Below, one piece after another: positions 3,767-61,658 of a stretch of 64,000 nucleotides of DNA. How positions within the stretch are numbered: the first letter of the stretch is position 1; every line of letters begins with the position of its first letter. Under the pieces are notes generated by a model. That model worked only from the letters and a program-made list of their open reading frames with translations. It did no database searches and was not told the DNA's origin. The stretch lies in IMG/VR virus record IMGVR_UViG_3300028864_000017; one strand, 5' to 3'. Position numbers and translations under genes: made by a program. This DNA comes from a virus (lineage: Duplodnaviria > Caudoviricetes).

Positions 3767-4225
3767 ATGTCTGAAAACGAAGATTTAGATTCACGTCAAA
3801 AGTTACAAAAAAAGATGTTAGAATCTACTAAACAATGGATTGCTATTGTAAATAAATTAACTGGTAGATTAATTCATGATGATTTGAAAAATATTGCAGA
3901 TATTCAAGCTGAAGCAATAAGTCAAAGACAAATGGTAGTTGAAGAAATAAAAAATTATAGTGTTAAAATACATAAACTTGTTCAAAAAACAAAGGTATTA
4001 ACAAAAGCTAAATTTGAATTCTACGCAACATCATATCAAGTTAAAACTTCTGGAACTGAAAAATTGAGATTAATTGAAGCAGATTTATCTGAACATCAAT
4101 GTTTTATAAATGAATTAGATGAACATGTTAATTTTTTAAGAGATACATCTAAAAATTTAGAATCAATAAACTATTCTGTTAAAGCTAAAATTGAACTTGC
4201 AAATATACTAGGAGGATATAAATAA
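3767..4225 (+). CDS. uvsY: UvsY-like recombination mediator protein
   Basis: 152-aa helical protein with FYAT...IEADL...VNFL..T.KNL....YSVK..IE pattern; sits just upstream of uvsW as in T4-like phages. Confidence 0.6.
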   Translation: MSENEDLDSRQKLQKKMLESTKQWIAIVNKLTGRLIHDDLKNIADIQAEAISQRQMVVEEIKNYSVKIHKLVQKTKVLTKAKFEFYATSYQVKTSGTEKLRLIEADLSEHQCFINELDEHVNFLRDTSKNLESINYSVKAKIELANILGGYK

Positions 4226-4464
4226 TGTTAATCAATGAAGAATTAAAAACCTATGGAATTAAATCAGCTTCTATGATATCAGAAGGAATATTTAAACCAA
4301 GAATTATTATAAAACATTTAGATAACTCTGTATATAGTTATTATGTAAATGAAGAAATAATATCTATTGAATTATTAAATGATATAATTAATAAACATAT
4401 TAATACTGTTTGTATAAAAAAAATCAGAATTAATAAATTAAATGAAATAGATGAAAATAGATGA
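4225..4464 (+). CDS. Hypothetical protein with C-terminal RxxKLxxI tag
   Basis: Ends IRINKLNEIDENR; coupled to its neighbours. Confidence 0.6.
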   Translation: MLINEELKTYGIKSASMISEGIFKPRIIIKHLDNSVYSYYVNEEIISIELLNDIINKHINTVCIKKIRINKLNEIDENR

Positions 4465-4636
4465 ATTAGCATATAAAATATTCCTTGATGAATTTTATGC
4501 TAAATTTGATTTCAAATCAAAAATTTATGGGGATTATAATTTTTTTTTAAAAAATAAAAAAAGTTATAAAAAATATTATATAAAAGCAAATTCTATCATA
4601 AGAAAAGAAAAATTAAAGGCACTAAATGAAATTTAA
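4451..4636 (+). CDS. Hypothetical protein with C-terminal RxxKLxxL tag
   Basis: Ends IRKEKLKALNEI. Confidence 0.6.
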   Translation: MKIDELAYKIFLDEFYAKFDFKSKIYGDYNFFLKNKKSYKKYYIKANSIIRKEKLKALNEI

Positions 4637-6182
4637 ACTAAATAAAGATAATTCAAAATTAATTTTAACTGAATCAACCAAAGGAGAATATAATCAACTT
4701 AAACTATATTTAACAAGAAAAGTTAATAATTATCGTTTTATGAAAAGATTCAAACTCGGTGTTTGGAATGGCGATATAAGCTACTTTTCAGACGGAGTAA
4801 TTAACTTTGGCTTATGGGGTGAAATATATAAATGCTGTAAAGAGTATGGTTACAAATTTATAATAGAAAATCAAGACCAATTTCCACGTAATAAAGATAT
4901 ATCAAAAGATAATTTACAAGAATTTATTGAGGATTTTTATAAAGATCATAAAACTCCTGATGGTAAATCATTTATGCCTTATGAGCATCAAGTAGATGCC
5001 ATATATCAATTACTCAAACATCAATATGGGTTAATTGAAATCGCAACTGCTGGAGGTAAATCATTAGTATTTGGTACTCTACTTTTTTATTACTTAAAAA
5101 ACGTAAATCAAAAAGCGAAAGTTCTATTGATTGTTCCAAGTATAAGTTTAGTTACACAATTTTATAATGATTTGAATGACTATAACTACGGTTTCAATAA
5201 TGATAATAAAACTCCATTAGATATTCGTATAGATGAAGTAATGAGTGATAAACCAAGAAAATATAGAGAAGGTGAAAAATTACCTAATGTATATATTGGT
5301 ACTTATCAATCTCTTGAAAAATATCCAAAAGAGTGGTTTTCACAATTTGAAATAGTCGCCTGTGATGAGGCTCATACAGCTAAGGCTGTTACCATTCAAA
5401 CTATTTTAACAAAAACTTTTGGAACTGCTAAATTTAGATTTGGTATGAGTGGTTCTTATCCATCTGATGCTTCAGTTGAAATATTAACTATTCAATCATT
5501 ATTGGGTCCAAAATTATTAAATATTAGTGCAAGAAAGTTAATTGATAAAGGATTAATTTCTGATCTTAAAATAAAAGTTATTATGTTACATCATGATAAT
5601 CATAAGTTTGCAGAAGGAGTTAATAGTATTAAAAAGTCAAATGGACAGCAAGCTTGGACGTTGGAAAGAGAATACATACACAATTCAGCTAAAAGAATGA
5701 CATTCATTAAAAACTTAGTAGATAAATTCAAATCAAATTCACTTATATTATTTCATACTATTGTATATGGTACAGAATTATATAATCACATTAAAGATAA
5801 TTGTATTGGAAAGGATGTATTCTATATGGATGGTGGCACATCTACTGAGAAAAGAGAATATATTAAGAAAAAACTAGAAGATACATCAGGTAATCCTAAA
5901 ATACTCATAGCATCATTCGGTGTATTTTCAACAGGTGTTTCTGTGAAAGCAATTGCTAATATTATCTTTGCAGATTCTTACAAAGAACCTAAAATAATAC
6001 GTCAGGCAATTGGTAGAGGATTGAGATTACATAAAGAAAAGTCAAAACTAATAGTGTTTGATTTGGTTGATATTTTTCATCCTGATTATAAAACAATATT
6101 GTGGAAACAATATGAATCAAGAAGAGATGAAGTATATAAATTACAACAATATCCATATGACGAATTAAAGATTAAACTATAA
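4626..6182 (+). CDS. uvsW: UvsW-like SF2 DNA helicase
   Basis: Walker A ATAGGKS, DEAH box (CDEAH), motif III GMSGS, motif V STGVS, motif VI QAIGRGLR. Confidence 0.9.
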   Translation: MKFKLNKDNSKLILTESTKGEYNQLKLYLTRKVNNYRFMKRFKLGVWNGDISYFSDGVINFGLWGEIYKCCKEYGYKFIIENQDQFPRNKDISKDNLQEFIEDFYKDHKTPDGKSFMPYEHQVDAIYQLLKHQYGLIEIATAGGKSLVFGTLLFYYLKNVNQKAKVLLIVPSISLVTQFYNDLNDYNYGFNNDNKTPLDIRIDEVMSDKPRKYREGEKLPNVYIGTYQSLEKYPKEWFSQFEIVACDEAHTAKAVTIQTILTKTFGTAKFRFGMSGSYPSDASVEILTIQSLLGPKLLNISARKLIDKGLISDLKIKVIMLHHDNHKFAEGVNSIKKSNGQQAWTLEREYIHNSAKRMTFIKNLVDKFKSNSLILFHTIVYGTELYNHIKDNCIGKDVFYMDGGTSTEKREYIKKKLEDTSGNPKILIASFGVFSTGVSVKAIANIIFADSYKEPKIIRQAIGRGLRLHKEKSKLIVFDLVDIFHPDYKTILWKQYESRRDEVYKLQQYPYDELKIKL

Positions 6183-28784: not shown

Positions 28785-29638
28785 TAAAAATATATTCAAT
28801 TCATTATATTAAGCCAGAATTTGTTGAGTTACAATATCATCAATTCAAAAAAAATTGTAATGATGAATATGAACTAATAATTGTAAATAATGCATTTGAT
28901 GATAACACAAAAAATAGTATTATTGATATTTGTAAAAAATTTAATATAAATAGCATTAAAATAACTGATAATAATAGTGAAAAATTTACATCACAATCTC
29001 ATTTTTTTGCATTAGAATATATTTTACAAAATTACATAAAAATAGATGATACTAATAATATAAGTGTTATTTTAGATTGCGATGTTTTTCCTTTTAAAAA
29101 ATTTAGTTTTATTGATATATTAAATGGTAAAAAAATTTGTGGATTATATCAACAAAGAAATATTAATAATACATCATATGAATATTTATCTGCAATATTT
29201 ACAATATTTCATAATGATATAGATTTATCTAATTTCACTTTTAATGGAATTGCGGATACTGGATCTGGAACAAATATATTAATGAAAAAATATAGCACAG
29301 AGTTAGTTATACACACAGCAGCAATAGATATTGAATCCGATTATATATTTACTAATAATAAATTGGAATATCCATATAAACAAGAATATAGATGTCAATT
29401 TATAAGTAATGAATTCATACACTATTATAGAGGTTCAAATTGGTCAGAATCTGATGAGAATTATCACAATAAAAAAAATTTATTTTTGTTAAATTTTATA
29501 AATAATTATAATATTTACAAATTAAATTTAGATGATGTTGTATTATATGATACTGCTCATAGTGACAAAGGACTTAACGGAGTTGATCACAATTATAATA
29601 ATTACAGATATATCGAAAAAATGAAAAATGAAAAATGA
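28781..29638 (+). CDS. Putative GT-A glycosyltransferase
   Basis: LIIVNN, ILDCDVFP (DxD), DTG, FIHYYRGSNW. Confidence 0.5.
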   Translation: MIKIYSIHYIKPEFVELQYHQFKKNCNDEYELIIVNNAFDDNTKNSIIDICKKFNINSIKITDNNSEKFTSQSHFFALEYILQNYIKIDDTNNISVILDCDVFPFKKFSFIDILNGKKICGLYQQRNINNTSYEYLSAIFTIFHNDIDLSNFTFNGIADTGSGTNILMKKYSTELVIHTAAIDIESDYIFTNNKLEYPYKQEYRCQFISNEFIHYYRGSNWSESDENYHNKKNLFLLNFINNYNIYKLNLDDVVLYDTAHSDKGLNGVDHNYNNYRYIEKMKNEK

Positions 29639-29660
29639 ATTAATTTCATTTTTCATTTTT
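29624..29660. terminator. Bidirectional terminator
   Basis: aaaaatgaaaaatgaa-ttaat-ttcatttttcattttt between convergent genes. Confidence 0.7.
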
Positions 29661-29679
29661 ATTATAAATAGAATGAAAA

Positions 29680-30081
29680 TTATTTATATAATAACTGAAT
29701 TAAATTTTCAGTTAGAAAAGTAATCATTTTTTTACCTGGTTGTACTTCTACATCAGGAATTGATTTTATTATACTAAATTTATCATTTCCTTCAATTTTA
29801 AGCTCATCAATATATTTCTGAATATGTTCATCCTTTTCGTAATATGATTTCATTCCTTCTATTAATACTGTCAAATTTACACCCATCTTATTGTTATATT
29901 TAATGCACTGTAATTCATTCTCATCTTTTTCAATAAGAATGTACCACAATTTACTTTTACTAACCTTTATATTTTCTAAAAATGTATAAGCACTCTTAGC
30001 TTTAGTATTTCTAGGCATTTTAGCAACTTTACCAGTAAATTGTACTATTTTATCTTTATCATTCTCTTGATTATTCTCCAT
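29680..30081 (-). CDS. Hypothetical protein; shares a domain with 39695..40180
   Basis: KYN...N......Y.......I..GNDKFSI present in both. Confidence 0.7.
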   Translation of the reverse strand: MENNQENDKDKIVQFTGKVAKMPRNTKAKSAYTFLENIKVSKSKLWYILIEKDENELQCIKYNNKMGVNLTVLIEGMKSYYEKDEHIQKYIDELKIEGNDKFSIIKSIPDVEVQPGKKMITFLTENLIQLLYK

Positions 30082-30105
30082 TAAATATATTTATTTTTAT
30101 ACATC

Positions 30106-30115
30106 TATATATTAA
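30106..30115 (-). promoter_or_regulatory. Putative late promoter TTAATATATA
   Basis: 24 nt upstream of the 30081 start. Confidence 0.4.
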
Positions 30116-30304
30116 CATTAAAAGGTTCAATTTGTTTCAATTTTTGTTATATAAAAACATTTTTATATAAAATATAAAGATTATTTAATTTAACTATAAA
30201 TACTAAAATGAATCAGTTTTTAAATAAACATTTGGACGAAATTATACTAAATAAATAAAAGTTCGTTGAAACTTTAATTGAAAATAAATTAAAATAAATA
30301 ATAT

Positions 30305-31786
30305 ATGCTTGTAGATTACGAATATAAAAATAACAATTTAATATTAAGTTTTATAAACTCCAAAGGTAATATTGAACTTAAATATTATCCTTGGGCTAGA
30401 CCAACAAAATTCATAAAAACTACTGATGATGATTCAGAAAAAAGTGGTAGATATGTAACCTGGGATGGCTCCTCAGTAAAGGAAATTTATTCAAAATATC
30501 CAAATCGTTATTCAGTTTATGATTTTATTGATAGTTTTGATAAAAAAGAAAGGGATGAAATTTATTCATATAATGAACCTGATATATTCTTTGTAGATAT
30601 AGAAAATGAGATATTAGACAAAAAACCTGAGCCTCATTTAGCTGAAAGTGCAATTCAAACAATTTCAATTGTAAATAAGAATAAAGTGTTAGTAATTGGT
30701 ACAGAACCATTAGATTCCAAACAAATTTTAAGTATAGAATCCGATTTGGTTACATACTTCAAAAAATTTGATATTGATTATAAATTTAAGTATATTCATT
30801 ATAAAACTGAATTTGATATGCTTCATGCATTTTTTAATAAATTAGTTCCAAAGATGGCTGTAATAACTGGTTGGAATTTCATTGGTTATGACTGGACATT
30901 CTTAGTTGCAAGAGCTAGAAAATTAGGACTTGAACCTGAGGTTGCATCATTCACAAGAAAACTTAATAAACCATTCAACCCACCAAATGCAATACATCCA
31001 GATTATTCTGAATTACCTGCTCATAGAGTTATTGTTGATTATATGGAATTATTTAAGAAATGGGATCAATCTGTTAAAGTTAAAGAAAGTTTATCACTTG
31101 ATTTTGCATCTGAAAAAATACTTGGTAAAGAGATTAAGAAAATTAACTATGATGGTGATTTAAAAAGATTACACAGAGAAGATTTTAAAAAATTCGTGTT
31201 TTATAATGCAGTAGATAGTTGTCTTGTACAAAGGATTCATGAAAAAATGAAATATGTAGACATTCTTTATGGTATGGCTGTATTAGGTAAAATTAAGATT
31301 AAAGATGCTATTTCTACTCTTGCTCTAACAGAAGGAATTTTAAGAGAGAAATTAAGAGATCAAAAAAATATTGTACTTGTAAGAAATGAAGATAGTGAAT
31401 ATGGAGACACAGAATCTGAAGCTATAAAAGGAGGATGGGTTAAAGATCCAGTAAGAGGTATGGCAACATGGACATGTTGTTTTGACTTTGCATCTCTATA
31501 TCCTACAACAATGAGGGAATTTAATATATCAGCAGATTCATATAAAGGACAAAAAGTAAAAGGAAAAGACTACTCAATTTTTAATGGACATCAATTAGAA
31601 ATTGATTCTGATGATATTGTTACTCTAAATGGTTCAGTATTTAAGAATGAAGACGGAGTTGTTACTCAAGTAATGGCTGAAGTATATTCAGATAGAAAAA
31701 AATGGAAGAAAGTAATGAATCAAAAGCACGAAGAACTTGAAAAATTAAAAGATGAATTAAAAAAATTAGAAGAAACTGCATTATAA
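30305..31786 (+). CDS. gp43: Family-B DNA polymerase, N-terminal subunit (T4 gp43A-like: 3'-5' exonuclease + motif A); split polymerase
   Basis: ExoI FVDIE, ExoII GWNFIGYDW, ExoIII YNAVD, motif A DFASLYP; ends in the fingers helix; motifs B and C absent. Confidence 0.85.
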   Translation: MLVDYEYKNNNLILSFINSKGNIELKYYPWARPTKFIKTTDDDSEKSGRYVTWDGSSVKEIYSKYPNRYSVYDFIDSFDKKERDEIYSYNEPDIFFVDIENEILDKKPEPHLAESAIQTISIVNKNKVLVIGTEPLDSKQILSIESDLVTYFKKFDIDYKFKYIHYKTEFDMLHAFFNKLVPKMAVITGWNFIGYDWTFLVARARKLGLEPEVASFTRKLNKPFNPPNAIHPDYSELPAHRVIVDYMELFKKWDQSVKVKESLSLDFASEKILGKEIKKINYDGDLKRLHREDFKKFVFYNAVDSCLVQRIHEKMKYVDILYGMAVLGKIKIKDAISTLALTEGILREKLRDQKNIVLVRNEDSEYGDTESEAIKGGWVKDPVRGMATWTCCFDFASLYPTTMREFNISADSYKGQKVKGKDYSIFNGHQLEIDSDDIVTLNGSVFKNEDGVVTQVMAEVYSDRKKWKKVMNQKHEELEKLKDELKKLEETAL

Positions 31787-31800
31787 GTAATAATAAAAAT

Positions 31801-32307
31801 ATGGTAATTCCAATATATTTAAAGCCAAAATTTAAAGTAGGAGATATAATTATATCATTATTTGATATTAATTTAGAATATTATCGTTTCACTCCTTATC
31901 ATGAATTTACAATAATTAGTCATAATGATGAAGATGGTTATACAATTAAAGATAACGAATTAGGAATAGAATTAGTAGTAGATTCACATTATAAAAAAAA
32001 TCCAATTCATGATTTATTAAAAAACTTTACGATAAAAACAGATTTAAATACTGCTAGAAAAAGATCAAATTATTTAAATAGAAAGAAAAATTTTATCGAA
32101 TTTATTAGAACGAATTGTCCAAATCTAAGTTATGGTTATGATGAATATGAAAGATATGAAACTTGTAAAATAAAAAAAGGATATTGTAATTCTTGTAATA
32201 TATCAGAAGATTGTATTTGTCATATTAGTTCTGATGCTGTTAATAAAAATTCAGATGTAATTAAATATATTAGGGATAAAAAATTAAAAAAAATTAAAAA
32301 TATTTGA
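31801..32307 (+). CDS. Hypothetical protein (FKVGD SH3-like N-terminus, Cys cluster, RxxKL tag)
   Basis: PKFKVGDII; CxxKKGYCNSCxxxxxCxC; ends IRDKKLKKIKNI. Confidence 0.65.
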   Translation: MVIPIYLKPKFKVGDIIISLFDINLEYYRFTPYHEFTIISHNDEDGYTIKDNELGIELVVDSHYKKNPIHDLLKNFTIKTDLNTARKRSNYLNRKKNFIEFIRTNCPNLSYGYDEYERYETCKIKKGYCNSCNISEDCICHISSDAVNKNSDVIKYIRDKKLKKIKNI

Positions 32308-32597
32308 TGCCAAAAAATCTTGAATTATATCAAAAAATCTTAGATGCTTCAAATATGATTCACAATAAATCATTGAAAGGAAGCGGAAATTATATCATAT
32401 TGAATTCGAAATGTTCAGAAATATTAGAAAAATACGAAGAACAACGAAAGAAAAAGGAAGATAGAAAGAAAAAATTGAAACAGATAGAAAAATTATCAAC
32501 TAATACAGATGATGAAATTAATAATATCCTATATTTTAGAAAGAATGAATCAGAAAAATATAGGCAAAAAATAGAATTTAAACATAAAAAACATTAA
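32307..32597 (+). CDS. Small protein with a gp23-major-capsid-like segment and RxxKL motif
   Basis: ATG at 32307 overlaps the upstream stop; LYQKILDASNMIHNKSLKGSGNYIILNSKCSEIL then DRKKKLKQI. Confidence 0.6.
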   Translation: MPKNLELYQKILDASNMIHNKSLKGSGNYIILNSKCSEILEKYEEQRKKKEDRKKKLKQIEKLSTNTDDEINNILYFRKNESEKYRQKIEFKHKKH

Positions 32598-32611
32598 ATT
32601 AATAAAAATAT

Positions 32612-32644
32612 AATGAACTACATATTATTGTAGTTCATTTTTTT
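32612..32644 (+). terminator. Intrinsic terminator
   Basis: aatgaactaca-tattat-tgtagttcatt + T-tract. Confidence 0.75.
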
Positions 32645-32646
32645 AT

Positions 32647-32654
32647 TATCTTTG
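32647..32654 (+). promoter_or_regulatory. Bacteroidota -7 element TATCTTTG
   Basis: Directly after a terminator, 29 nt before the 32684 start. Confidence 0.6.
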
Positions 32655-32683
32655 TACATTAATTATAAAAAAACAAATAGGGC

Positions 32684-33010
32684 ATGAAATCAGAATATGG
32701 ATATAGCTTAGAAAATTCTTGGATAAACGAGAATAACATTGAAAATTATAAAGCATTTAACAAATTAATGGAAACATTTGAATTTGTAGGTGTTTTTTCA
32801 GATAAATTGATAATAAAAGTATTTAATCTAGCTTTTAGAATGACTGAAATTAAAAATTATTTGATAGATAATAAAATTTCTAAAATAGAAGCAGACGTCA
32901 AATATAAAGAAGTTACAAATGAATTCGTAGATTTATTGAATGTTTATTGTATTTTCTCAAGTATTTTTAAAAGCAATTGTACAATGTTATTTATAAGTAT
33001 AGGATTATGA
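32684..33010 (+). CDS. Hypothetical protein
   Basis: 108-aa ORF downstream of a host-type promoter. Confidence 0.6.
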   Translation: MKSEYGYSLENSWINENNIENYKAFNKLMETFEFVGVFSDKLIIKVFNLAFRMTEIKNYLIDNKISKIEADVKYKEVTNEFVDLLNVYCIFSSIFKSNCTMLFISIGL

Positions 33011-33210
33011 AAATATTAATGGCTATAATTTTCTTTATCGCTTTTTGCGGAACAGTATTCTTTTTTGGTAAATTAATGGTTTGGATGACATCTAAAATAA
33101 ATCCAAGTTCATTTGAAAATAAAATGACAAATTCTCAAATATTGAGTTATAATATAATTATGACAGTATCAATTTTTTTGTGGACAATTCTCTATTATTT
33201 AAGCTTATAA
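33007..33210 (+). CDS. Small two-TM membrane protein
   Basis: ATGA overlap at 33007; two hydrophobic stretches. Confidence 0.55.
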   Translation: MKILMAIIFFIAFCGTVFFFGKLMVWMTSKINPSSFENKMTNSQILSYNIIMTVSIFLWTILYYLSL

Positions 33211-33222
33211 AAAATAAAAATT

Positions 33223-33660
33223 ATGAAACCAGTAAGAGTTTTTTTTAAATCAGTGAGTAAATATTTTGAAACCTGTTCATTATGGGTTATTTTTGGTGTG
33301 ACATACATATCAGCATTAGTTATTTTTCTATTGATGTTTCGTCTTTTTATTGGTAATAACGATGTTATTATTCTTAATGTTTTTATAAAACTTTCATTCT
33401 TTTTATCTTTTATATTTTCTTGCTTATCAACATTAACAGTTAGTAGTTCAAGAAAAAGTGATGTTTTTTGGAAATATCATAATGAAGTTGAAACTTTGAT
33501 AAATGATTCTGATACAGTTGATTCTTTACACGATATATTTGATAACGAAATACAAAAATTATGGAAAATGTCAATTGGTGGAATACATAATTTAGAAGCA
33601 AATAGATTGGTTTCATTAATTAATATAAAAATAAAAACAATTGAGAAAATAAAGCCATGA
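33223..33660 (+). CDS. Two-TM membrane protein
   Basis: Two hydrophobic segments followed by a helical soluble tail. Confidence 0.6.
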   Translation: MKPVRVFFKSVSKYFETCSLWVIFGVTYISALVIFLLMFRLFIGNNDVIILNVFIKLSFFLSFIFSCLSTLTVSSSRKSDVFWKYHNEVETLINDSDTVDSLHDIFDNEIQKLWKMSIGGIHNLEANRLVSLINIKIKTIEKIKP

Positions 33661-33896
33661 AAAATACAACAGTAGAGAGTTATTTATTATCTATTGAGGC
33701 ATTAGGAGAAAATATTATAAAAAAAATAAAAATTTCTGCATATACAGATGATGTAGCATGTTATAATGTAACTTATTTTGATGTTGAATTAGCAAAAAAT
33801 AGAAAAAAATTAATCACTATTAAATTATCTGAATATCATTTATTTATAAATAAATTGATTCGTAAACAAAAACTTCAAAAACTATCTGAATATTAA
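33657..33896 (+). CDS. Hypothetical protein with RxxKL tag
   Basis: Ends IRKQKLQKLSEY. Confidence 0.6.
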   Translation: MKNTTVESYLLSIEALGENIIKKIKISAYTDDVACYNVTYFDVELAKNRKKLITIKLSEYHLFINKLIRKQKLQKLSEY

Positions 33897-33916: not shown

Positions 33917-34786
33917 ATGGAAAAAACTTTAGATATTACTGAGAAAAAGAGTGCTGCTTTTTTGTCTGTTATTGCATCAGGAGCATTGACTATATTTAAG
34001 CTAATTGTTGGTTTATTAACAGGTAGTTTAGGAATATTGTCGGAAGCATTACACTCAACTTTGGATATGATAGCTGCTATTATAACATATTTTTCTGTTA
34101 GAATTTCAGATAAGCCTGCAGATAATGAACATAATTATGGACATGGTAAAGTAGAAAATTTGTCAGCATTTGCAGAGGCCATATTATTAGCAATTACAAG
34201 TATTTGGATAATTTATGAATCAATAACAAAGTTAATTTTAAATGATTTTAATGTTGAAGTGACTATATGGAGTTATGTGGTTATTATATCATCTATTGTA
34301 ATTGACATAAATAGATCAAGAATGCTTAAAAAAGTTGCATTAAAATATAATAGTCAAGCATTAGAAGCTGATTCTATTCATTTTAAAACCGATATATGGA
34401 GTTCATGTGTTGTTTTAGTAGGGTTGATTCTTGTTAATTTTAATATACATTGGGCAGATTCAATTGCAGCATTAGGTGTTGCCTTTATCATAATTTTAGT
34501 TTCTTATAGATTAGCTAAAAACGCAATTGATGTTCTGTTAGATAAAGCGCCAGAAGGTGTAAGAGATATTATAATAGAAATATTAAATAATCATGAAGAA
34601 GTTAAAATATACCATGATTTAAAAACCAGAAGTTCAGGAGCAGATACTTTCATTAAATTTGACTTGCATTTGAATCCAGAACTAAGTTTATTAGAAGCTC
34701 ATTCTGTTTGTGACAAAATTGAAATTGAGATTAAAGAAAAAATAAAAAGAAGTGAAATTTATATTCACATAGAACCAAACGAATAA
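33917..34786 (+). CDS. Cation diffusion facilitator (FieF/ZnT-like) metal transporter
   Basis: Six TM helices; ALHSTLD (TM2), HNYGHGKVE, ADSIHFKTD (TM5); C-terminal dimerisation domain with AH..CD and IHIEP. Confidence 0.9.
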   Translation: MEKTLDITEKKSAAFLSVIASGALTIFKLIVGLLTGSLGILSEALHSTLDMIAAIITYFSVRISDKPADNEHNYGHGKVENLSAFAEAILLAITSIWIIYESITKLILNDFNVEVTIWSYVVIISSIVIDINRSRMLKKVALKYNSQALEADSIHFKTDIWSSCVVLVGLILVNFNIHWADSIAALGVAFIIILVSYRLAKNAIDVLLDKAPEGVRDIIIEILNNHEEVKIYHDLKTRSSGADTFIKFDLHLNPELSLLEAHSVCDKIEIEIKEKIKRSEIYIHIEPNE

Positions 34787-52464: not shown

Positions 52465-53118
52465 ATGTTTTTTTTTAAAAGTAAAATAAATGAATTGACA
52501 TATTTACGTCAATATACACATCATAGTGATTATGATTCATCAGAAAAAATGAAATATGAATCAATTGATAGTATTATGAAATACTTCAGAAAAATGATTG
52601 ATATTGATGAAAAATGTGGATTATCAATAGAATCAAAATTTAAAGATGTTATTTATCCTGTTTTTGATTTAGATTGTAAATCTAAATATGAATTATTTAA
52701 AACTTTACATGAAGATACTCCATATGTAATATTCATAAGTAGTTGTAACGATGACGATGATGATGAAAAAAAATATCACTATTGGGGAATTATTGGAAAT
52801 TCTAACAAAAAATTCAAAGAATTAATATCAAATCAAAATTGGAAAATCTGCAATGATAATAATTATGTAAAATTTTCAACAGAAATAAGTAAAATTCTAA
52901 TTAGAGGAATATTTGAAAATAAAAATAGAAAGCCAAAATTATTTGAAAAAAATGGTATTCTATCTGAAGATTTTGAAATGTTCATATCTAAATTAGAAAG
53001 TCATTATAATACTAATGGCTTTGAATTGTCAGTATTAAGATATAAGAATACTGAACTATTGATACAATTCAATAGAAAATTAAAATTGAAAAAGATAAAT
53101 TATAGTGAAAAAGAATAA
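52465..53118 (+). CDS. AEP (primase-polymerase) superfamily-like protein with RxxKL tag
   Basis: PVFDLD (DxD), ISS...YHYW (SxxxH-like), CNDNNY (third Asp); ends NRKLKLKKI. Confidence 0.4.
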   Translation: MFFFKSKINELTYLRQYTHHSDYDSSEKMKYESIDSIMKYFRKMIDIDEKCGLSIESKFKDVIYPVFDLDCKSKYELFKTLHEDTPYVIFISSCNDDDDDEKKYHYWGIIGNSNKKFKELISNQNWKICNDNNYVKFSTEISKILIRGIFENKNRKPKLFEKNGILSEDFEMFISKLESHYNTNGFELSVLRYKNTELLIQFNRKLKLKKINYSEKE

Positions 53119-53275
53119 AAAAAATGAAAATATTTTTAATGTAGTTAACTTAGATTTTGCAAGCTTATATCCATCCTCATTTAAAATTGATGAACGATTG
53201 ATTGCTGAGCTAAATAGAAAAAAAACAAATGAAAAAAGACGGCAAAAGCTTGAAAAAATAAATAACTTAAAATGA
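53105..53275 (+). CDS. Unannotated 56-aa ORF carrying PolB motif A and an RxxKL tag
   Basis: GTG start; VKKNKKNENIFNVVNLDFASLYPSSFKIDERLIAELNRKKTNEKRRQKLEKINNLK*; TGA overlaps the next ATG (ATGA at 53272). Confidence 0.65.
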   Translation: MKKNKKNENIFNVVNLDFASLYPSSFKIDERLIAELNRKKTNEKRRQKLEKINNLK

Positions 53276-53791: not shown

Positions 53792-54127
53792 ATGAAAATA
53801 ATACCTATAAAATCAAAAAAACAAGATAATGGTTTGTGGGGTATGCCTAAAAATTGTTATTATATCGAACACTATTTTCAATTAGAAGAAAGAAATGAAT
53901 TTATTTTATCTGCATTAATAAATTGTTTGAATACTAAATTTAATGAGAGATTTGAAATGTCTCTTTTGAGTGAAAAAAAGATTTATTTTAAATTTGAAAA
54001 ACATGGAACTGTGATTCTTTCATTTAATGATTATGAAGTATTTAATGATAAGTTGTATGAATTTGATAATGTTAATGAACATAATATTTTTATGAGAAAA
54101 CAGAAATTAATAGAAATTAATGTATAA
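53792..54127 (+). CDS. Hypothetical protein with RxxKL tag
   Basis: Ends MRKQKLIEINV. Confidence 0.6.
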   Translation: MKIIPIKSKKQDNGLWGMPKNCYYIEHYFQLEERNEFILSALINCLNTKFNERFEMSLLSEKKIYFKFEKHGTVILSFNDYEVFNDKLYEFDNVNEHNIFMRKQKLIEINV

Positions 54128-54410: not shown

Positions 54411-54676
54411 TATCTAATTTAGATACTAAATCATATCTACTGTTATTAAGAGAATTGAAAAAATATTATAACAAAAAATTCAATAATAAATATGATTTTA
54501 GTATTCGTGAAATAGTTAAAGAATTCAATTCATCACTTTATACTGTAGTTATTATATTTCATTATAATAGTAAACATGATAGTTATGAAATTAAAATTTT
54601 AACTGAACTTCAAGTGATTTCAATATTGAGAATATCTAAACTAAATAAAATAAATGAAAGACACAGAATTAACTAA
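54395..54676 (+). CDS. Hypothetical protein with RxxKL tag; paralog of the previous gene
   Basis: YLLLLRELKKYY...LTELQ....LRISKLNKI. Confidence 0.65.
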   Translation: MSDNIVSNLDTKSYLLLLRELKKYYNKKFNNKYDFSIREIVKEFNSSLYTVVIIFHYNSKHDSYEIKILTELQVISILRISKLNKINERHRIN

Positions 54677-54923
54677 CGATGATTTTAAAGTAGGACAAAT
54701 TGTCACTTGTGTAACATTTGATGATAATGATTACTGGGATCAACATTTGACAGTAGGGAAAAAATATAAAATTGAGGATATTGATTGGCATTTTGAAAAT
54801 AAAATTGTGGTAAGAAGTGATAACAAAAAATTGAGTCAATTTGTACCAATACGATTTTTTTCTGATAAAAAAATAATTAGAAAAATGAAATTAGAAAAAC
54901 TGAATAAAATATGTACAAAGTAG
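54654..54923 (+). CDS. SH3-like small protein with RxxKL tag
   Basis: FKVGQIVTC...LTVGKKYKI...RFFS...IRKMKLEKL. Confidence 0.65.
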   Translation: MKDTELTNDDFKVGQIVTCVTFDDNDYWDQHLTVGKKYKIEDIDWHFENKIVVRSDNKKLSQFVPIRFFSDKKIIRKMKLEKLNKICTK

Positions 54924-55243
54924 GAGATATTATGGTTTGTATTGATAATACGCCTAAATCTGATAACATTTTTTATGATTTCATTTCATATTGTTTAAAA
55001 TACAAAAAATCAAATCCTTTAGAAATAAATAAAACATATACCATTAAAAAAATTCAATCATATTGGGATGATGATGGAAATTGCTATGAATTACTTGATG
55101 ATACTAGCAGTAGATATCAAAATACTTCATATATGTTAGAAGAAGTTGAGGAAATATATGGATATACAGTTTTTGATATAAATAGATTTATTGGGTTAAA
55201 AGAATATAGAACATCAAAACTAAAAAAATTAAATGAAATATGA
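54911..55243 (+). CDS. SH3-like small protein with RxxKL tag
   Basis: YKVGDIMVCI...LEINKTYTI...RFIGLKEYRTSKLKKL. Confidence 0.65.
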   Translation: MYKVGDIMVCIDNTPKSDNIFYDFISYCLKYKKSNPLEINKTYTIKKIQSYWDDDGNCYELLDDTSSRYQNTSYMLEEVEEIYGYTVFDINRFIGLKEYRTSKLKKLNEI

Positions 55244-55484
55244 CAAAATTATAGTTGGAGATTTTTTAATTTGCATTAAAAATGATTATACAAATGATAA
55301 CCTCATAACAGTAAATAAAGAATATAAAGTATTAGAAATAGGTAGAAATTATAGTACAATAACAATAATGACAGATGTTGGTATCATATGCGATATAATA
55401 TTTTATTCATTTTTCATTAGTAAAAGAATTTTAAGAAAAAATAAATTGAATAAATTGAATAAAATATTTTGTGAATTGGATTAA
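55233..55484 (+). CDS. SH3-like small protein with RxxKL tag
   Basis: IVGDFLICI...ITVNKEYKV...FFIS...LRKNKLNKL. Confidence 0.65.
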   Translation: MKYDKIIVGDFLICIKNDYTNDNLITVNKEYKVLEIGRNYSTITIMTDVGIICDIIFYSFFISKRILRKNKLNKLNKIFCELD

Positions 55485-57606: not shown

Positions 57607-57840
57607 ATGTTTAAATTAGGAGAAATTGTAGTTTGTATTGATGATAGTGATGATACTACTACATATGAACCATATAAAAATTTAAAAAAATACTCAACAT
57701 ATGAGGTAAAGAATGACGGATATTATTTTAATACTATTAGTGTTTCATTAACTGATATAAAAGGAAGATTCAGAGTAACAAGATTCATGTCTGTTAAAGA
57801 ATATAGAAAATTAAAATTAGAAAAATTAAATAAAAAATAA
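57607..57840 (+). CDS. SH3-like small protein with RxxKL tag
   Basis: MFKLGEIVVCI...LKKYSTYEV...RFMSVKEYRKLKLEKLNKK. Confidence 0.65.
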   Translation: MFKLGEIVVCIDDSDDTTTYEPYKNLKKYSTYEVKNDGYYFNTISVSLTDIKGRFRVTRFMSVKEYRKLKLEKLNKK

Positions 57841-57851
57841 AAAAGTAAATT

Positions 57852-59738
57852 ATGGGAAAAATTATTGGAATTGACTTGGGTTCATATAACTCAGCAGTAT
57901 CTATTGTAGAAGGTGGACAAACAATTGTCATACCTAATTCAGAAGGATCAGTATCAACACCATCTGTTGTTGCATTTGATGTGAAAACAGGAGAAATTAA
58001 AGTTGGTGATGCAGCTAAAAGGCAAGCAGCATTAAATCCAAAAAACACAATTTTTAATATCAAAAGACTTATTGGTAGAACTTATGACGAAGTTAAACAT
58101 CTAAAACGTCCTTATGACATTGTAGATAATAATGGTAAAGCTGCTGTAAAAATTGGAGATAGAATATATTCACCAGAAGAAATATCTGCAATCATTCTTC
58201 AAAAAATGAAAAAAACAGCAGAGGATTATCTTGGAGCAAATGTAGAAAGTGCTGTAATAACAGTACCAGCGTATTTTAATTCAGATGAAAGAAGTAGCAC
58301 AAAAGTAGCAGGAGAAATTGCTGGATTAAAAGTAGAAAGAATTATATCAGAACCAACTGCTGCTTCATTAAACATAAAAAATGAAACTGATAAATTATAT
58401 TTTATAATAGATAGTGGTGGTTGTACATCAGATTTTAGTTCAATTTCAATTGAAGATGGCTTATTTGAAGTAATAGCAACAGATGGTAGTTTAGATCTTG
58501 GAGGTAATTTAATTGATGATGCACTTGTTAATTACATTTCTGATGATTTTTTAAAAGAATCAGGAGTAGATATAAGAAAAGATCCTATGGCTCTTCAACG
58601 TGTCACAGAAGCAGCAGAAAAAGCAAAAATTGAGTTATCTAATGTTACACAAACAGAAATCAATTTACCTTATATTACTGCAGTTGACGGAACGCCAAAA
58701 CATTTAGTTAAAACTATAACTCGTGCCAAATTTGAACAATTAATTCAATTTTATGTTGACGAAACAATGAAATTAATTAAATCATCAATTAAAAAAAGCA
58801 ATAAGAATATAAGTGATATTGATGAAATTGTTCTTGTAGGAGGTAGCACAAGAATACCATATTTAGTAGATAACATTGAAAAATATTTTGGTAAGAAATC
58901 TAACAAGTCTCTTAACGCTGATACTGCCATAGCATCAGGGGCTGCTATACAAGGATCCGTTCTTGCTGGAGATACAACTGACATATTATTACTTGATGTT
59001 ACAGCGTTGAGCTTCTGTATTGAAACCATGGGTGGTGTATCAACTAAAATGATAGAAGCAAATACTACAATACCGACAAGTAAGTCACAGGTATTCAGTA
59101 CGGCTTCGGATAACCAACCAAGTGTCCAGGTTAATGTTTGTACAGGAGAAAGACCTATGTATGTAAACAACAAACACTTAGGTACATTTTCACTTGATGT
59201 TCCACCTGCTCGTAGAGGTACACCACAAGTAGAAATCACATTCAGCATTGATAGCAATTCTATTCTAACAGTCAAAGCTGTTGATAAAGCAACTGGAAAA
59301 TCCAATGATATTAGAATTGAAGGTAAATCATCGTTAACAAAAGAAGAGATTGAAAGAATGAAGAATGAAGCTGAACAAAATGCTGATTCAGATAAAAAAG
59401 AAAAAGAGAAAGTTGATAAACTTAATCAAGCAGATTCTATGATTTTTCAAACAGAAAAACAAATTGAAGATTTTTCTGATAAGTTAACTGAAGAAAACAA
59501 AACTGAATTGAATTCTAAGCTTGGTAATCTTAAAGAAGCTCACAAAACTCAAAATGTTGATACTATTGATAACTGCATTAAAGAATTGAATGATTCTTGG
59601 CAAAATATTAGTTCTAAGCTTTATGAAAAATCTCAAAATGAGTCAACAAATGATTCTAATCCAACAAATGAAACTCAATCACCTAATAAAGATGATTCTG
59701 AAAATGTGACAGACGTAGATTTTGAGGAAGTAAAATAA
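57852..59738 (+). CDS. dnaK: Hsp70/DnaK chaperone with divergent nucleotide-binding motifs
   Basis: GIDLG, KRLIG, TVPAYF, EPTAA, LVGGSTRIP, linker ILLLDV, NTTIPT, DNQP, C-terminal DFEEVK. Confidence 0.95.
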   Translation: MGKIIGIDLGSYNSAVSIVEGGQTIVIPNSEGSVSTPSVVAFDVKTGEIKVGDAAKRQAALNPKNTIFNIKRLIGRTYDEVKHLKRPYDIVDNNGKAAVKIGDRIYSPEEISAIILQKMKKTAEDYLGANVESAVITVPAYFNSDERSSTKVAGEIAGLKVERIISEPTAASLNIKNETDKLYFIIDSGGCTSDFSSISIEDGLFEVIATDGSLDLGGNLIDDALVNYISDDFLKESGVDIRKDPMALQRVTEAAEKAKIELSNVTQTEINLPYITAVDGTPKHLVKTITRAKFEQLIQFYVDETMKLIKSSIKKSNKNISDIDEIVLVGGSTRIPYLVDNIEKYFGKKSNKSLNADTAIASGAAIQGSVLAGDTTDILLLDVTALSFCIETMGGVSTKMIEANTTIPTSKSQVFSTASDNQPSVQVNVCTGERPMYVNNKHLGTFSLDVPPARRGTPQVEITFSIDSNSILTVKAVDKATGKSNDIRIEGKSSLTKEEIERMKNEAEQNADSDKKEKEKVDKLNQADSMIFQTEKQIEDFSDKLTEENKTELNSKLGNLKEAHKTQNVDTIDNCIKELNDSWQNISSKLYEKSQNESTNDSNPTNETQSPNKDDSENVTDVDFEEVK

Positions 59739-59767
59739 TTTTTTTAAAATAATTTAAAATAAAAAAT

Positions 59768-59793
59768 AAAGTCAGATTAGTTCTGGCTTTTTT
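59768..59793 (+). terminator. Intrinsic terminator
   Basis: aaagtcaga-ttagt-tctggcttt (one G-U pair) + T-tract. Confidence 0.65.
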
Positions 59794-59797
59794 TATA

Positions 59798-59805
59798 TAT
59801 CTTTG
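59798..59805 (+). promoter_or_regulatory. Bacteroidota -7 element TATCTTTG
   Basis: After a terminator, 28 nt before 59834. Confidence 0.6.
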
Positions 59806-59833
59806 TATCACGAATATTAAAAAATTATAAAAC

Positions 59834-60076
59834 ATGTTCAATATAAATAGGAAACATCTTTGTAAGAAAAACTCAAAGTATTGTATTAAAGGTAATATTT
59901 ATGATATTCATATGATATCTTTTAATTGTATTTCAATATATTTGGATAATTATCCTATTTATGAAAATTTTATATTTGAGGAAGGTTATTATACATATTT
60001 AAATTTTTATGATTATTTTTATACTGAGAAGGAAGAAAGGAAATTAAAATTAGAAAATATTAAAAATGTCAGATAA
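59834..60076 (+). CDS. Small protein with RxxKL tag; paralog of the next gene
   Basis: CK....Y.I...F...YDYFYTEKEERKLKLENI. Confidence 0.65.
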   Translation: MFNINRKHLCKKNSKYCIKGNIYDIHMISFNCISIYLDNYPIYENFIFEEGYYTYLNFYDYFYTEKEERKLKLENIKNVR

Positions 60077-60365
60077 TAAAAAAATAAATAAAGAAAGGAA
60101 ATATCGTTGCAAAGAATCAATATATGGTTTTATAATAAATAAATATTATGAAATTAATGAGATATACACATATATGATTGAGATGCGTATTATTGTTAAT
60201 TATCAATATAATTATTATTGTTTCTCATTAGAAGATGATTATGATTCACTTCCTAATTTTAATAGATTTTTTTATTCTGAGAAAGAAGAAAGGAAAGTAA
60301 AATTAAAACAAATAGAAGAATCACAAAAAATCACAAAAAATAATAATATTTTACTTGAAGCATAA
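60066..60365 (+). CDS. Small protein with RxxKL tag; paralog of the previous gene
   Basis: YRCK...YYEI...FNRFFYSEKEERKVKLKQI. Confidence 0.65.
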   Translation: MSDNKKINKERKYRCKESIYGFIINKYYEINEIYTYMIEMRIIVNYQYNYYCFSLEDDYDSLPNFNRFFYSEKEERKVKLKQIEESQKITKNNNILLEA

Positions 60366-61352: not shown

Positions 61353-61658
61353 GTGAAAAATATCATATTTATTCTATTTTTATTTATGAGTAGTTATGTT
61401 TCATCTCAGAATAGAGTGACTACATCGGTAGGAGTTACACTTATATCTATTAAAGATACAACTATTAATACAGCCATGATGCTTGAAACCAACAAGACAT
61501 ATACATTATCAAAAGGAATGTCCATTCAATACATGAACAGAACATATGAAAGACCTTTAAATATTGTTAAAATGTCAAATGGTAAAGAAAAATGGACATA
61601 TGATAAAACTGTGGTGTATATGAAAGATGGAAAGATAGATATCATCAGGAATTTATAA
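61353..61658 (+). CDS. Secreted/periplasmic hypothetical protein
   Basis: GTG start; signal-peptide-like MKNIIFILFLFMSSYVSSQ. Confidence 0.55.
   Translation: MKNIIFILFLFMSSYVSSQNRVTTSVGVTLISIKDTTINTAMMLETNKTYTLSKGMSIQYMNRTYERPLNIVKMSNGKEKWTYDKTVVYMKDGKIDIIRNL

Follow-up and report, generated by a model that had tools for sequence, protein, structure and literature searches.

What is a short reading frame that resembles part of the major capsid protein (MCP) doing directly behind a DNA polymerase gene? The question arises in a window of 64,000 nucleotides (the whole stretch of DNA to which the positions refer), which belongs to a 97-kb IMG/VR entry with a CheckV completeness of 14% and a GC content of about 24%. 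The closest DNA matches of this record are uncultured megaphages of 630–735 kb. An earlier note, made from the letters of the window, had pointed to a small open reading frame (ORF) at 32307–32597, quoted two stretches of its translation, and read it as a fragment of a T4-type gp23 capsid protein fused to an RxxKL tag. The gene is indeed there: it occupies 32307..32597 on the + strand, stop included, and its 96-aa translation contains LYQKILDASNMIHNKSLKGSGNYIILNSKCSEIL and next EQRKKKEDRKKKLKQI.

The ATG at 32307 lies within an ATGA overlap that includes the TGA of an upstream 168-aa ORF, and the stop codon is TAA. An in-frame TAA three codons 5' of the mini-gene start rules out that the two ORFs are fused by a frameshift. 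Records of the identical 96-aa protein exist for 17 contigs, and three homologs share about 60% identity, the same length and matching neighbours, in the order N-terminal gene of family-B DNA polymerase (PolB), 168/175-aa ORF, mini-gene and 108-aa ORF. Compared with the gene of its closest homolog, P0002, the mini-gene has a dN/dS of 0.35. At the level of sequence, it has been shown to be a real gene under selection, whose product belongs to a family of mini-proteins that is widespread in megaphages.

The size of this family became apparent when a profile of four close homologs was searched against 1.84 billion representative proteins (E <= 1e-3). The search retrieved at least 88 clusters with a median length of 66 aa (alignment A4). 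Nearly all of them are stand-alone proteins of 55–75 aa, and none of the 88 clusters found in this search has the length of a capsid protein. The family consensus reads M..K.L..KIL.ASN.IH..S..GSGNYIIVSS.VA...(about 12 residues)...RKKKLK.I. The 96-aa protein carries the N-terminal block of the family, L..KI..ASN.I....G.GN[YF]II(V)S..A, at residues 7–40. It also carries the family tail, R..[KR][LIM]..[LIMF] at 24–28 residues after the block glycine, with 28 residues separating G25 from R53. The tail is found in 82 of 91 members, the quartiles of the distance between block glycine and tail Arg are 24–28 residues, and at the positions of R53 and K56 conservation across the family reaches at least 90%. 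The tail Arg typically lies close to the C-terminus (median 14 residues away, and no more than 16 residues away in 59 of the 82 tailed members). Here the 96-aa protein departs from the usual pattern of about 55–75 aa with the Arg no more than about 16 residues away from the C-terminus: it is longer, and its Arg is 44 residues from the end. Its last 33 residues (64–96; 32496..32594, +) form a K/E-rich helical extension, delimited by alignments A1 and A2 and a predicted helix at 68–95, which is restricted to this protein and its close homologs P0002–P0004 and P0006.

The resemblance to the MCP is confined to residues 2–44 (32310..32438, +), a block made of a helix, an extended GSGNYIIL stretch and the start of the next helix. 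Against Pfam Gp23 (PF07068), residues 6/7–44/45 of the 96-aa protein match model positions 223–261 with an E of 0.002 and 18 bits, below the gathering cut-off of 24.4 bits, and its PHROG match to major head proteins is weak. Such a single E value is unconvincing alone, since about 150 ORFs in the window have to be corrected for. One could argue from this, and from a PDB search with profile A1 (four close homologs) that was dominated by the charged tail and found no gp23, that the resemblance arose by chance in a low-complexity, AT-rich ORF. This is extremely improbable and is refuted by the profile results: independent members and both search directions converge on the same 40-residue segment of the MCP. 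Gp23 is matched individually by 54 of the 91 family members (Pfam, E <= 0.01), always over the same model segment, and among the 91 members scanned no second Pfam family is matched by more than one member. Three members exceed the Gp23 cut-off, namely P0025 (42.5 bits), P0055 (28.6 bits) and P0046 (27.2 bits). The match of P0025 (L011 67-495; 142 aa) consists of two Gp23 stretches. By eye, its family block is preceded by a piece resembling YVDP...GRKG, and its tail is followed by one resembling TRQIKATW...EDL, an order unlike that of the capsid protein.

When the family profile was searched against 177,635 PDB sequences, the best match was T4 gp23 352–390, ALLFQIDKEAVEIARQTGRGEGNFIIASRNVVNVLASVD, which was ungapped and weak (E 0.075, HMMER). 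The gapless alignment to the conserved part of T4-type gp23 that the earlier note had proposed thus holds. For member P0016, a tblastn search of 50,697 phage records gave a sole match, which lies within an annotated capsid gene (E 0.2). We also compared two complete relatives, LR756501 (W01, 735 kb) and LR745206 (W02, 635 kb), both of which encode gp23-family capsid proteins. In a six-frame search of both, the family profile has its best matches inside the capsid genes, with E values of 1.9e-7 and 2.9e-5, and a further one in a gp24-like paralog (E 7.4e-4). A profile comparison with MCPs, such as the earlier note had called for, is significant at the level of the family: hhalign aligns the family to 27 megaphage MCPs over 40–43 ungapped columns with a probability of 93.5–94.5% and E values from 2.3e-7 to 8.1e-8. 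In these alignments residues 2–44 of the mini-protein correspond to 431–473 of the megaphage MCP and to about 352–390 of T4 gp23, a helix/strand/helix block in the C-terminal third of the gp23-type MCP, which in HK97-fold capsid proteins lies in the A domain. ASNxI is invariant across the 27 aligned megaphage MCPs and is likewise part of the family consensus.

On this evidence we are highly confident that the mini-protein contains a gp23-type MCP block by descent. The same profile scores the megaphage MCP at 30 bits and T4 gp23 at 16 bits, which makes the gp23 lineage of megaphages the probable source of the family. The claim of homology rests on profiles, because the pairwise similarity between the 96-aa protein and the MCPs of LR756501 and LR745206 is weak. 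No longer proteins sharing words with the 96-aa protein were found, and tblastn with the MCPs of the relatives detects no capsid gene in the 97-kb record. A narrow MCP HMM run over all frames of the record places an ORF outside the window at the top (E 0.18), the 96-aa protein second (E 0.76) and an ORF at 4225 fifth (E 3.5), none of these being significant alone.

Could the protein still be a capsid subunit? The AF2 model (pLDDT 90.8) shows a helix at residues 3–24, an extended segment at 25–33 over GSGNYIILN, and further helices at 34–65 and 68–95. Foldseek finds no match for this model in the PDB, and a comparison with a protein atlas yields generic helical look-alikes only. A full-length HK97-type fold would align over more than 350 residues; here 39–43 columns align in a protein of 96 aa. 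Nor does the gene lie in a head module: it comes after the PolB N-terminal gene and the 168-aa ORF, whereas the true capsid gene of LR745206 follows a protease gene. With about 40 of more than 500 residues present, a capsid subunit is ruled out, and the 96-aa protein cannot serve as one.

The second part of the protein is its basic tail, R53-KKKLKQIEKL-63 (R-x-x-K-L-x-x-I; 32463..32495, +), which is conserved in the family and shared with other ORFs. We scanned for the pattern R[KRDQEN]x[KRS][LI]xx[LIM] in the last 25 residues and found it in 19 of the 166 non-overlapping ORFs of the 97-kb record, whereas residue shuffles average 0.27 such ORFs and never exceed 3. It occurs in 1 of 394 out-of-frame (shadow) ORFs, and its density is 30 times greater in C-terminal tails than in protein interiors. 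In 18 of the 19 tagged ORFs the Arg lies 10–16 residues from the C-terminus. The same holds on a larger scale in LR745206, where 118 of 1035 ORFs have the tail in their last 25 residues (2.5 in shuffles) and where tagged genes are scarce around the head/structural module. Examples within the window, all from the tail-motif scan, are the ORFs at 4451-4636, 31801-32307, 33657-33896, 52465-53118, 53792-54127, 54654-54923, 55233-55484, 57607-57840, 59834-60076 and 60066-60365.

The Leu/Ile codons of the tail vary and the downstream DNA is unrelated, which rules out a repeated DNA element and marks the tail as a peptide signal. A membrane-anchoring amphipathic helix was rejected as well, the helical hydrophobic moment being low (0.07–0.35). 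The R-x-x-K-L tail is, judged by its distribution and its codons, a true peptide label on about 11% of the proteome. The tag of the earlier note is a real, shared peptide motif; it is not special to fragments, since it is carried by proteins with many types of body. Likewise, the layout of fragment plus tag stands in so far as both parts are present; the tag, which is C-terminal in most members, is internal in the 96-aa protein and does not lie 10–16 residues from its end. Tagged small ORFs also directly flank the phage Hsp70 gene (57852-59738), all within 57607-60365, and at 460435-462780 of LR745206 they flank a candidate DnaJ gene whose product starts J-domain-like. This flanking of chaperone genes may be due to chance, given the clustering of tagged genes.

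The surroundings of the mini-gene are those of replication. The family-B DNA polymerase is split, and the gene at 30305..31786 (+) encodes its N-terminal part, from the exonuclease domain to motif A and the first fingers helix (Pfam DNA_pol_B_exo1 and DNA_pol_B; phrog_2062). This ORF ends in the fingers region after motif A, the corresponding gene in relatives likewise encodes 494–502 aa, and no C-terminal PolB half is detectable in the 97-kb record. The 168-aa ORF that follows (31801..32307, +), known from the ORF list and the tail scan, is Cys-rich, has the tagged end IRDKKLKKIKNI, and overlaps the mini-gene by its stop. In locus L002 a 175-aa homolog of this ORF precedes the mini-gene homolog, and in loci L002 and L007 a PolB N-terminal gene lies near it. 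In relatives, the mini-gene homologs sit among genes for replication and nucleotide metabolism. A terminator scan finds an intrinsic-terminator-like hairpin with an 11-bp stem and a T-run 15 nt past the stop (32612..32639, +), the only such site on both strands of 29600–33300, where shuffles give 0.2. Because this single terminator-like hairpin comes directly after the mini-gene, PolB N-terminal gene, 168-aa ORF and mini-gene are likely to form one unit. The mini-gene is thus probably co-transcribed with the PolB N-terminal gene, outside the structural module; an early timing of its expression would follow from gene order and one predicted terminator only. Further downstream, at 33917-34786, lies a complete gene for a cation-diffusion-facilitator transporter (Cation_efflux and ZT_dimer, E 1e-46), an unusual auxiliary gene. 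Among stop codons, TAG ends 2 of the 130 long open frames of the record (TAA 101, TGA 27) and 56 of 684 in LR745206, whose use of TAG is normal.

The mini-gene is not the only one of its kind. The earlier note had drawn a parallel to a PolB-motif mini-ORF elsewhere in the window, and this parallel is borne out. The ORF at 53105..53275 (+; 56 aa) combines PolB motif A (DFASLYPS, LDFASLYPSSFK) with the tail RRQKLEKINNLK, and BLASTP aligns it to the phage's own PolB N-terminal part with 7 of 12 residues identical (E 6e-4). Past the window end, at about 65370-65525 (about 78979-79134 in G000:C1), an ORF of 51 aa contains TYDIVANPAFYNCTF and the tail RIEKINRLNNL, and it matches residues 140–162 of a relative's head-maturation (prohead) protease with an E of 2.9e-5, which brings the genes of excerpt and tail in this genome to three. 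A marginal candidate for a further MCP piece is the 79-aa ORF at 4225..4464 (+), in which the stretch KSASMISEGIFKPRIIIK, resembling the C-terminal MCP block QSISLISEATWAPRMLIR, is joined to the tail KKIRINKLNEIDENR; with a tblastn E of 2 to the MCPs of both relatives and the MCP HMM value given above, it is not significant alone. At 61353-61658 there is an untagged, excerpt-like ORF of 101 aa. Its residues 54–101 resemble residues 317–364 of a helicase that the phage itself encodes at 4626-6182 (E 5e-4).

The complete relatives contain more examples. In LR745206 the MCP has four small-ORF look-alikes by phmmer (one also by Pfam) and two by Pfam alone, three of which carry the tail, and there is one tagged excerpt each of an AAA+ protease and an exonuclease. 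Altogether 6 of 13 internal excerpts in this genome bear the tag, where the baseline is 15% (Fisher p 0.007). A protease 'fragment' with an E of 1e-36 was discounted, as it reflects a shared tandem-repeat motif and is no clean excerpt. Hence, the search for other tagged pieces of core proteins that the earlier note had suggested does turn them up, for PolB and protease in this record and for MCP, AAA+ protease and exonuclease in LR745206. Sequence comparison confirms that genes of MCP fragment plus tag form a conserved class. That hallmark proteins seem to be preferred may be a detection bias, as only conserved motifs are recognisable. We found no description of a class of excerpt-plus-tail mini-genes in the literature.

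LR756501 holds capsid-protein pieces of a different kind. At 276.4 kb (L020) it encodes a mini-capsid-protein of 196 aa that consists of N-arm, spine-helix and C-terminal blocks and is missing the A domain. At 145.6–146.0 kb (L018/L027) lies a degenerate, colinear C-terminal half of an MCP paralog with one in-frame TAA and a duplicated DPYGEE.W.N element. An apparent second tail type in this genome, LDPYGEE.W.N, was discounted because it looks like the MCP's own DPY..W..N within this degenerate half.

Several explanations could account for a selected mini-gene of this kind. It could simply encode an autonomous small protein for which the capsid ancestry is mere history, the block having been reused as a compact scaffold, perhaps in a strand-mediated dimer, and the long basic helices perhaps binding nucleic acids or a host hub. 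Such a reading would agree with a confident, mostly helical AF2 model with long K/E/R-rich helices, with a position among replication genes and not head genes, and with a tail common to many unrelated bodies. It would also agree with LR756501 and LR745206, in neither of which, gp23-type MCPs notwithstanding, we found a standalone tailed copy. We nevertheless consider it somewhat unlikely. The family retains the residues that are conserved in MCPs (ASNxI and G..N[YF]II) despite deep divergence, and their conservation on both sides suggests a shared structural or recognition constraint. That other MCP pieces recur as mini-ORFs in relatives would also be odd if ancestry were irrelevant. The fragment might instead pair with unassembled MCP in the manner of a microProtein and modulate capsid assembly, either that of its own phage (timing or chaperoning) or, as dominant-negative interference, that of a co-infecting relative. 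The origin of the piece in a conserved core block of the MCP speaks for assembly modulation, as do the 196-aa mini-capsid-protein and the other pieces in relatives, and the consensus G.GN[YF]II is nearer to classical T4-type MCPs than to the MCPs of the two relatives, which read GPAQYLV. Yet the gene lies outside the head module and is probably co-transcribed with a polymerase gene, and excerpts of PolB, protease and exonuclease are left unexplained, so that a modulator of assembly appears improbable.

It is less probable again that these ORFs are by-products of recombination or homing, in which short exon-like pieces of conserved genes were moved, for example together with homing endonuclease genes, and fused to an A-rich tail-coding sequence and the resulting frames are neutral or decaying. 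In favour of such an origin, homing classically targets the conserved motifs of essential genes. P0025 and the 196-aa ORF of LR756501 are mosaics of capsid-protein blocks, and LR756501 also has the degenerate capsid-protein half with its in-frame stop. One family member, P0019, even starts with GIY...(x14)...VRIG and looks GIY-YIG-like, but Pfam finds no GIY-YIG domain in it. What makes neutral debris so improbable is that 88 clusters retain start, length, spacing and tail at 30–45% identity. The dN/dS reported above argues in the same direction, and an unselected frame of 96 codons at 24% GC would soon gain TAA stops.

Known systems offer partial parallels. With T4 gp23/gp24 (PF07068; PDB 6uzc and 5vf3) the mini-protein shares the homologous block and the local helix/extended/helix pattern, but it has no N-arm, E-loop, P domain or remainder of the A domain; in turn it has a basic tail that is absent from capsid proteins, and its gene lies outside the head module. 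Eukaryotic microProteins such as LITTLE ZIPPER and the Id proteins are small proteins cut from a larger one, of which one interaction-competent piece is kept. The mini-protein is, like them, an evolutionary excerpt of a larger protein, although it comes from a phage and what it has kept is an element of the buried core, not a known dimerisation domain. For the tail, one could think of the internal proteins and Alt of T4, which share a single N-terminal capsid-targeting label that is cleaved by the prohead protease. In both cases one short label is found on many unrelated proteins of one phage, but the tail described here is basic, is placed towards the C-terminus in about 11% of ORFs, and marks genes that avoid the structural module. 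The MuA-type ClpX signal RRKKAI is a C-terminal recognition tail of an AAA+ protease. By analogy, the tail would resemble such signals in that basic and hydrophobic residues are combined in a motif which keeps a fixed, short spacing to the free C-terminus, and LR745206 encodes its own AAA+ ATP-dependent protease. The phage motif is longer, however (R-x-x-K-[LI]-x-x-[LI]-x...), and internal in the 96-aa protein.

Overall, our best explanation is that of a selected, capsid-derived mini-gene with a label that acts as a mimic, and we hold it with slightly less than even confidence. Molecular mimicry as the mechanism, taken by itself, is more doubtful and is put forward tentatively. For the roles that the earlier note had proposed, a decoy for capsid-sensing immunity or an inhibitor of assembly or superinfection, the sequence data count neither way. 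As a mimic, the mini-protein would present that part of the MCP which is least free to mutate, before or apart from the synthesis of the capsid, and its target would be a factor that normally recognises the same piece in unassembled MCP. Such a factor could be a host sensor of capsid protein, or else a chaperone or a protease, while the tail would provide a handle for a single partner shared by all tagged proteins. Bacterial sensors of this type exist: Avs7/Dsr1 detects capsid proteins and Avs19 DNA polymerases, two proteins that are both excerpted here (10.64898/2026.01.04.697583). The reported sensors, however, recognise whole folds over extended interfaces (10.64898/2026.01.04.697583), whereas the mini-protein offers a piece of about 40 residues that may be unable to reproduce such an interface. 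A fragment bound to a sensor could also trigger it instead of blocking it. The tail, being internal, is possibly non-working in the 96-aa protein if a free C-terminus is needed nearby. In the literature we found no phage decoy made from a capsid-protein fragment.

A bolder version of the mimic reading would combine both parts in one system, in which hallmark-motif baits (the capsid block, PolB motif A and the prohead-protease hairpin) and the proteome-wide tail serve together as an adaptor-type counter-defence against immune sensors or factors of rival phages. The bait would bind the sensor, and the tail would pass the captured sensor on for sequestration or degradation. The receptor of the tail might be encoded by phage or host, for example a phage AAA+ protease or the Hsp70/DnaJ machinery. 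We regard a two-part system of this kind as a long shot.

If the mini-proteins are mimics, they would represent a new route by which phages act against factors that recognise their most conserved proteins, and these are the same classes of protein that were recently shown to trigger pattern-recognition immunity in bacteria. Even if no function is assumed, they form a defined and testable family, which numbers at least 88 clusters, keeps to one fixed architecture of block, linker and tail, and is tied to a peptide label found on about 11% of the proteins of a megaphage. Very short ORFs should stay in the annotation of huge phage genomes, because such ORFs can be conserved genes that were assembled from pieces of larger genes.
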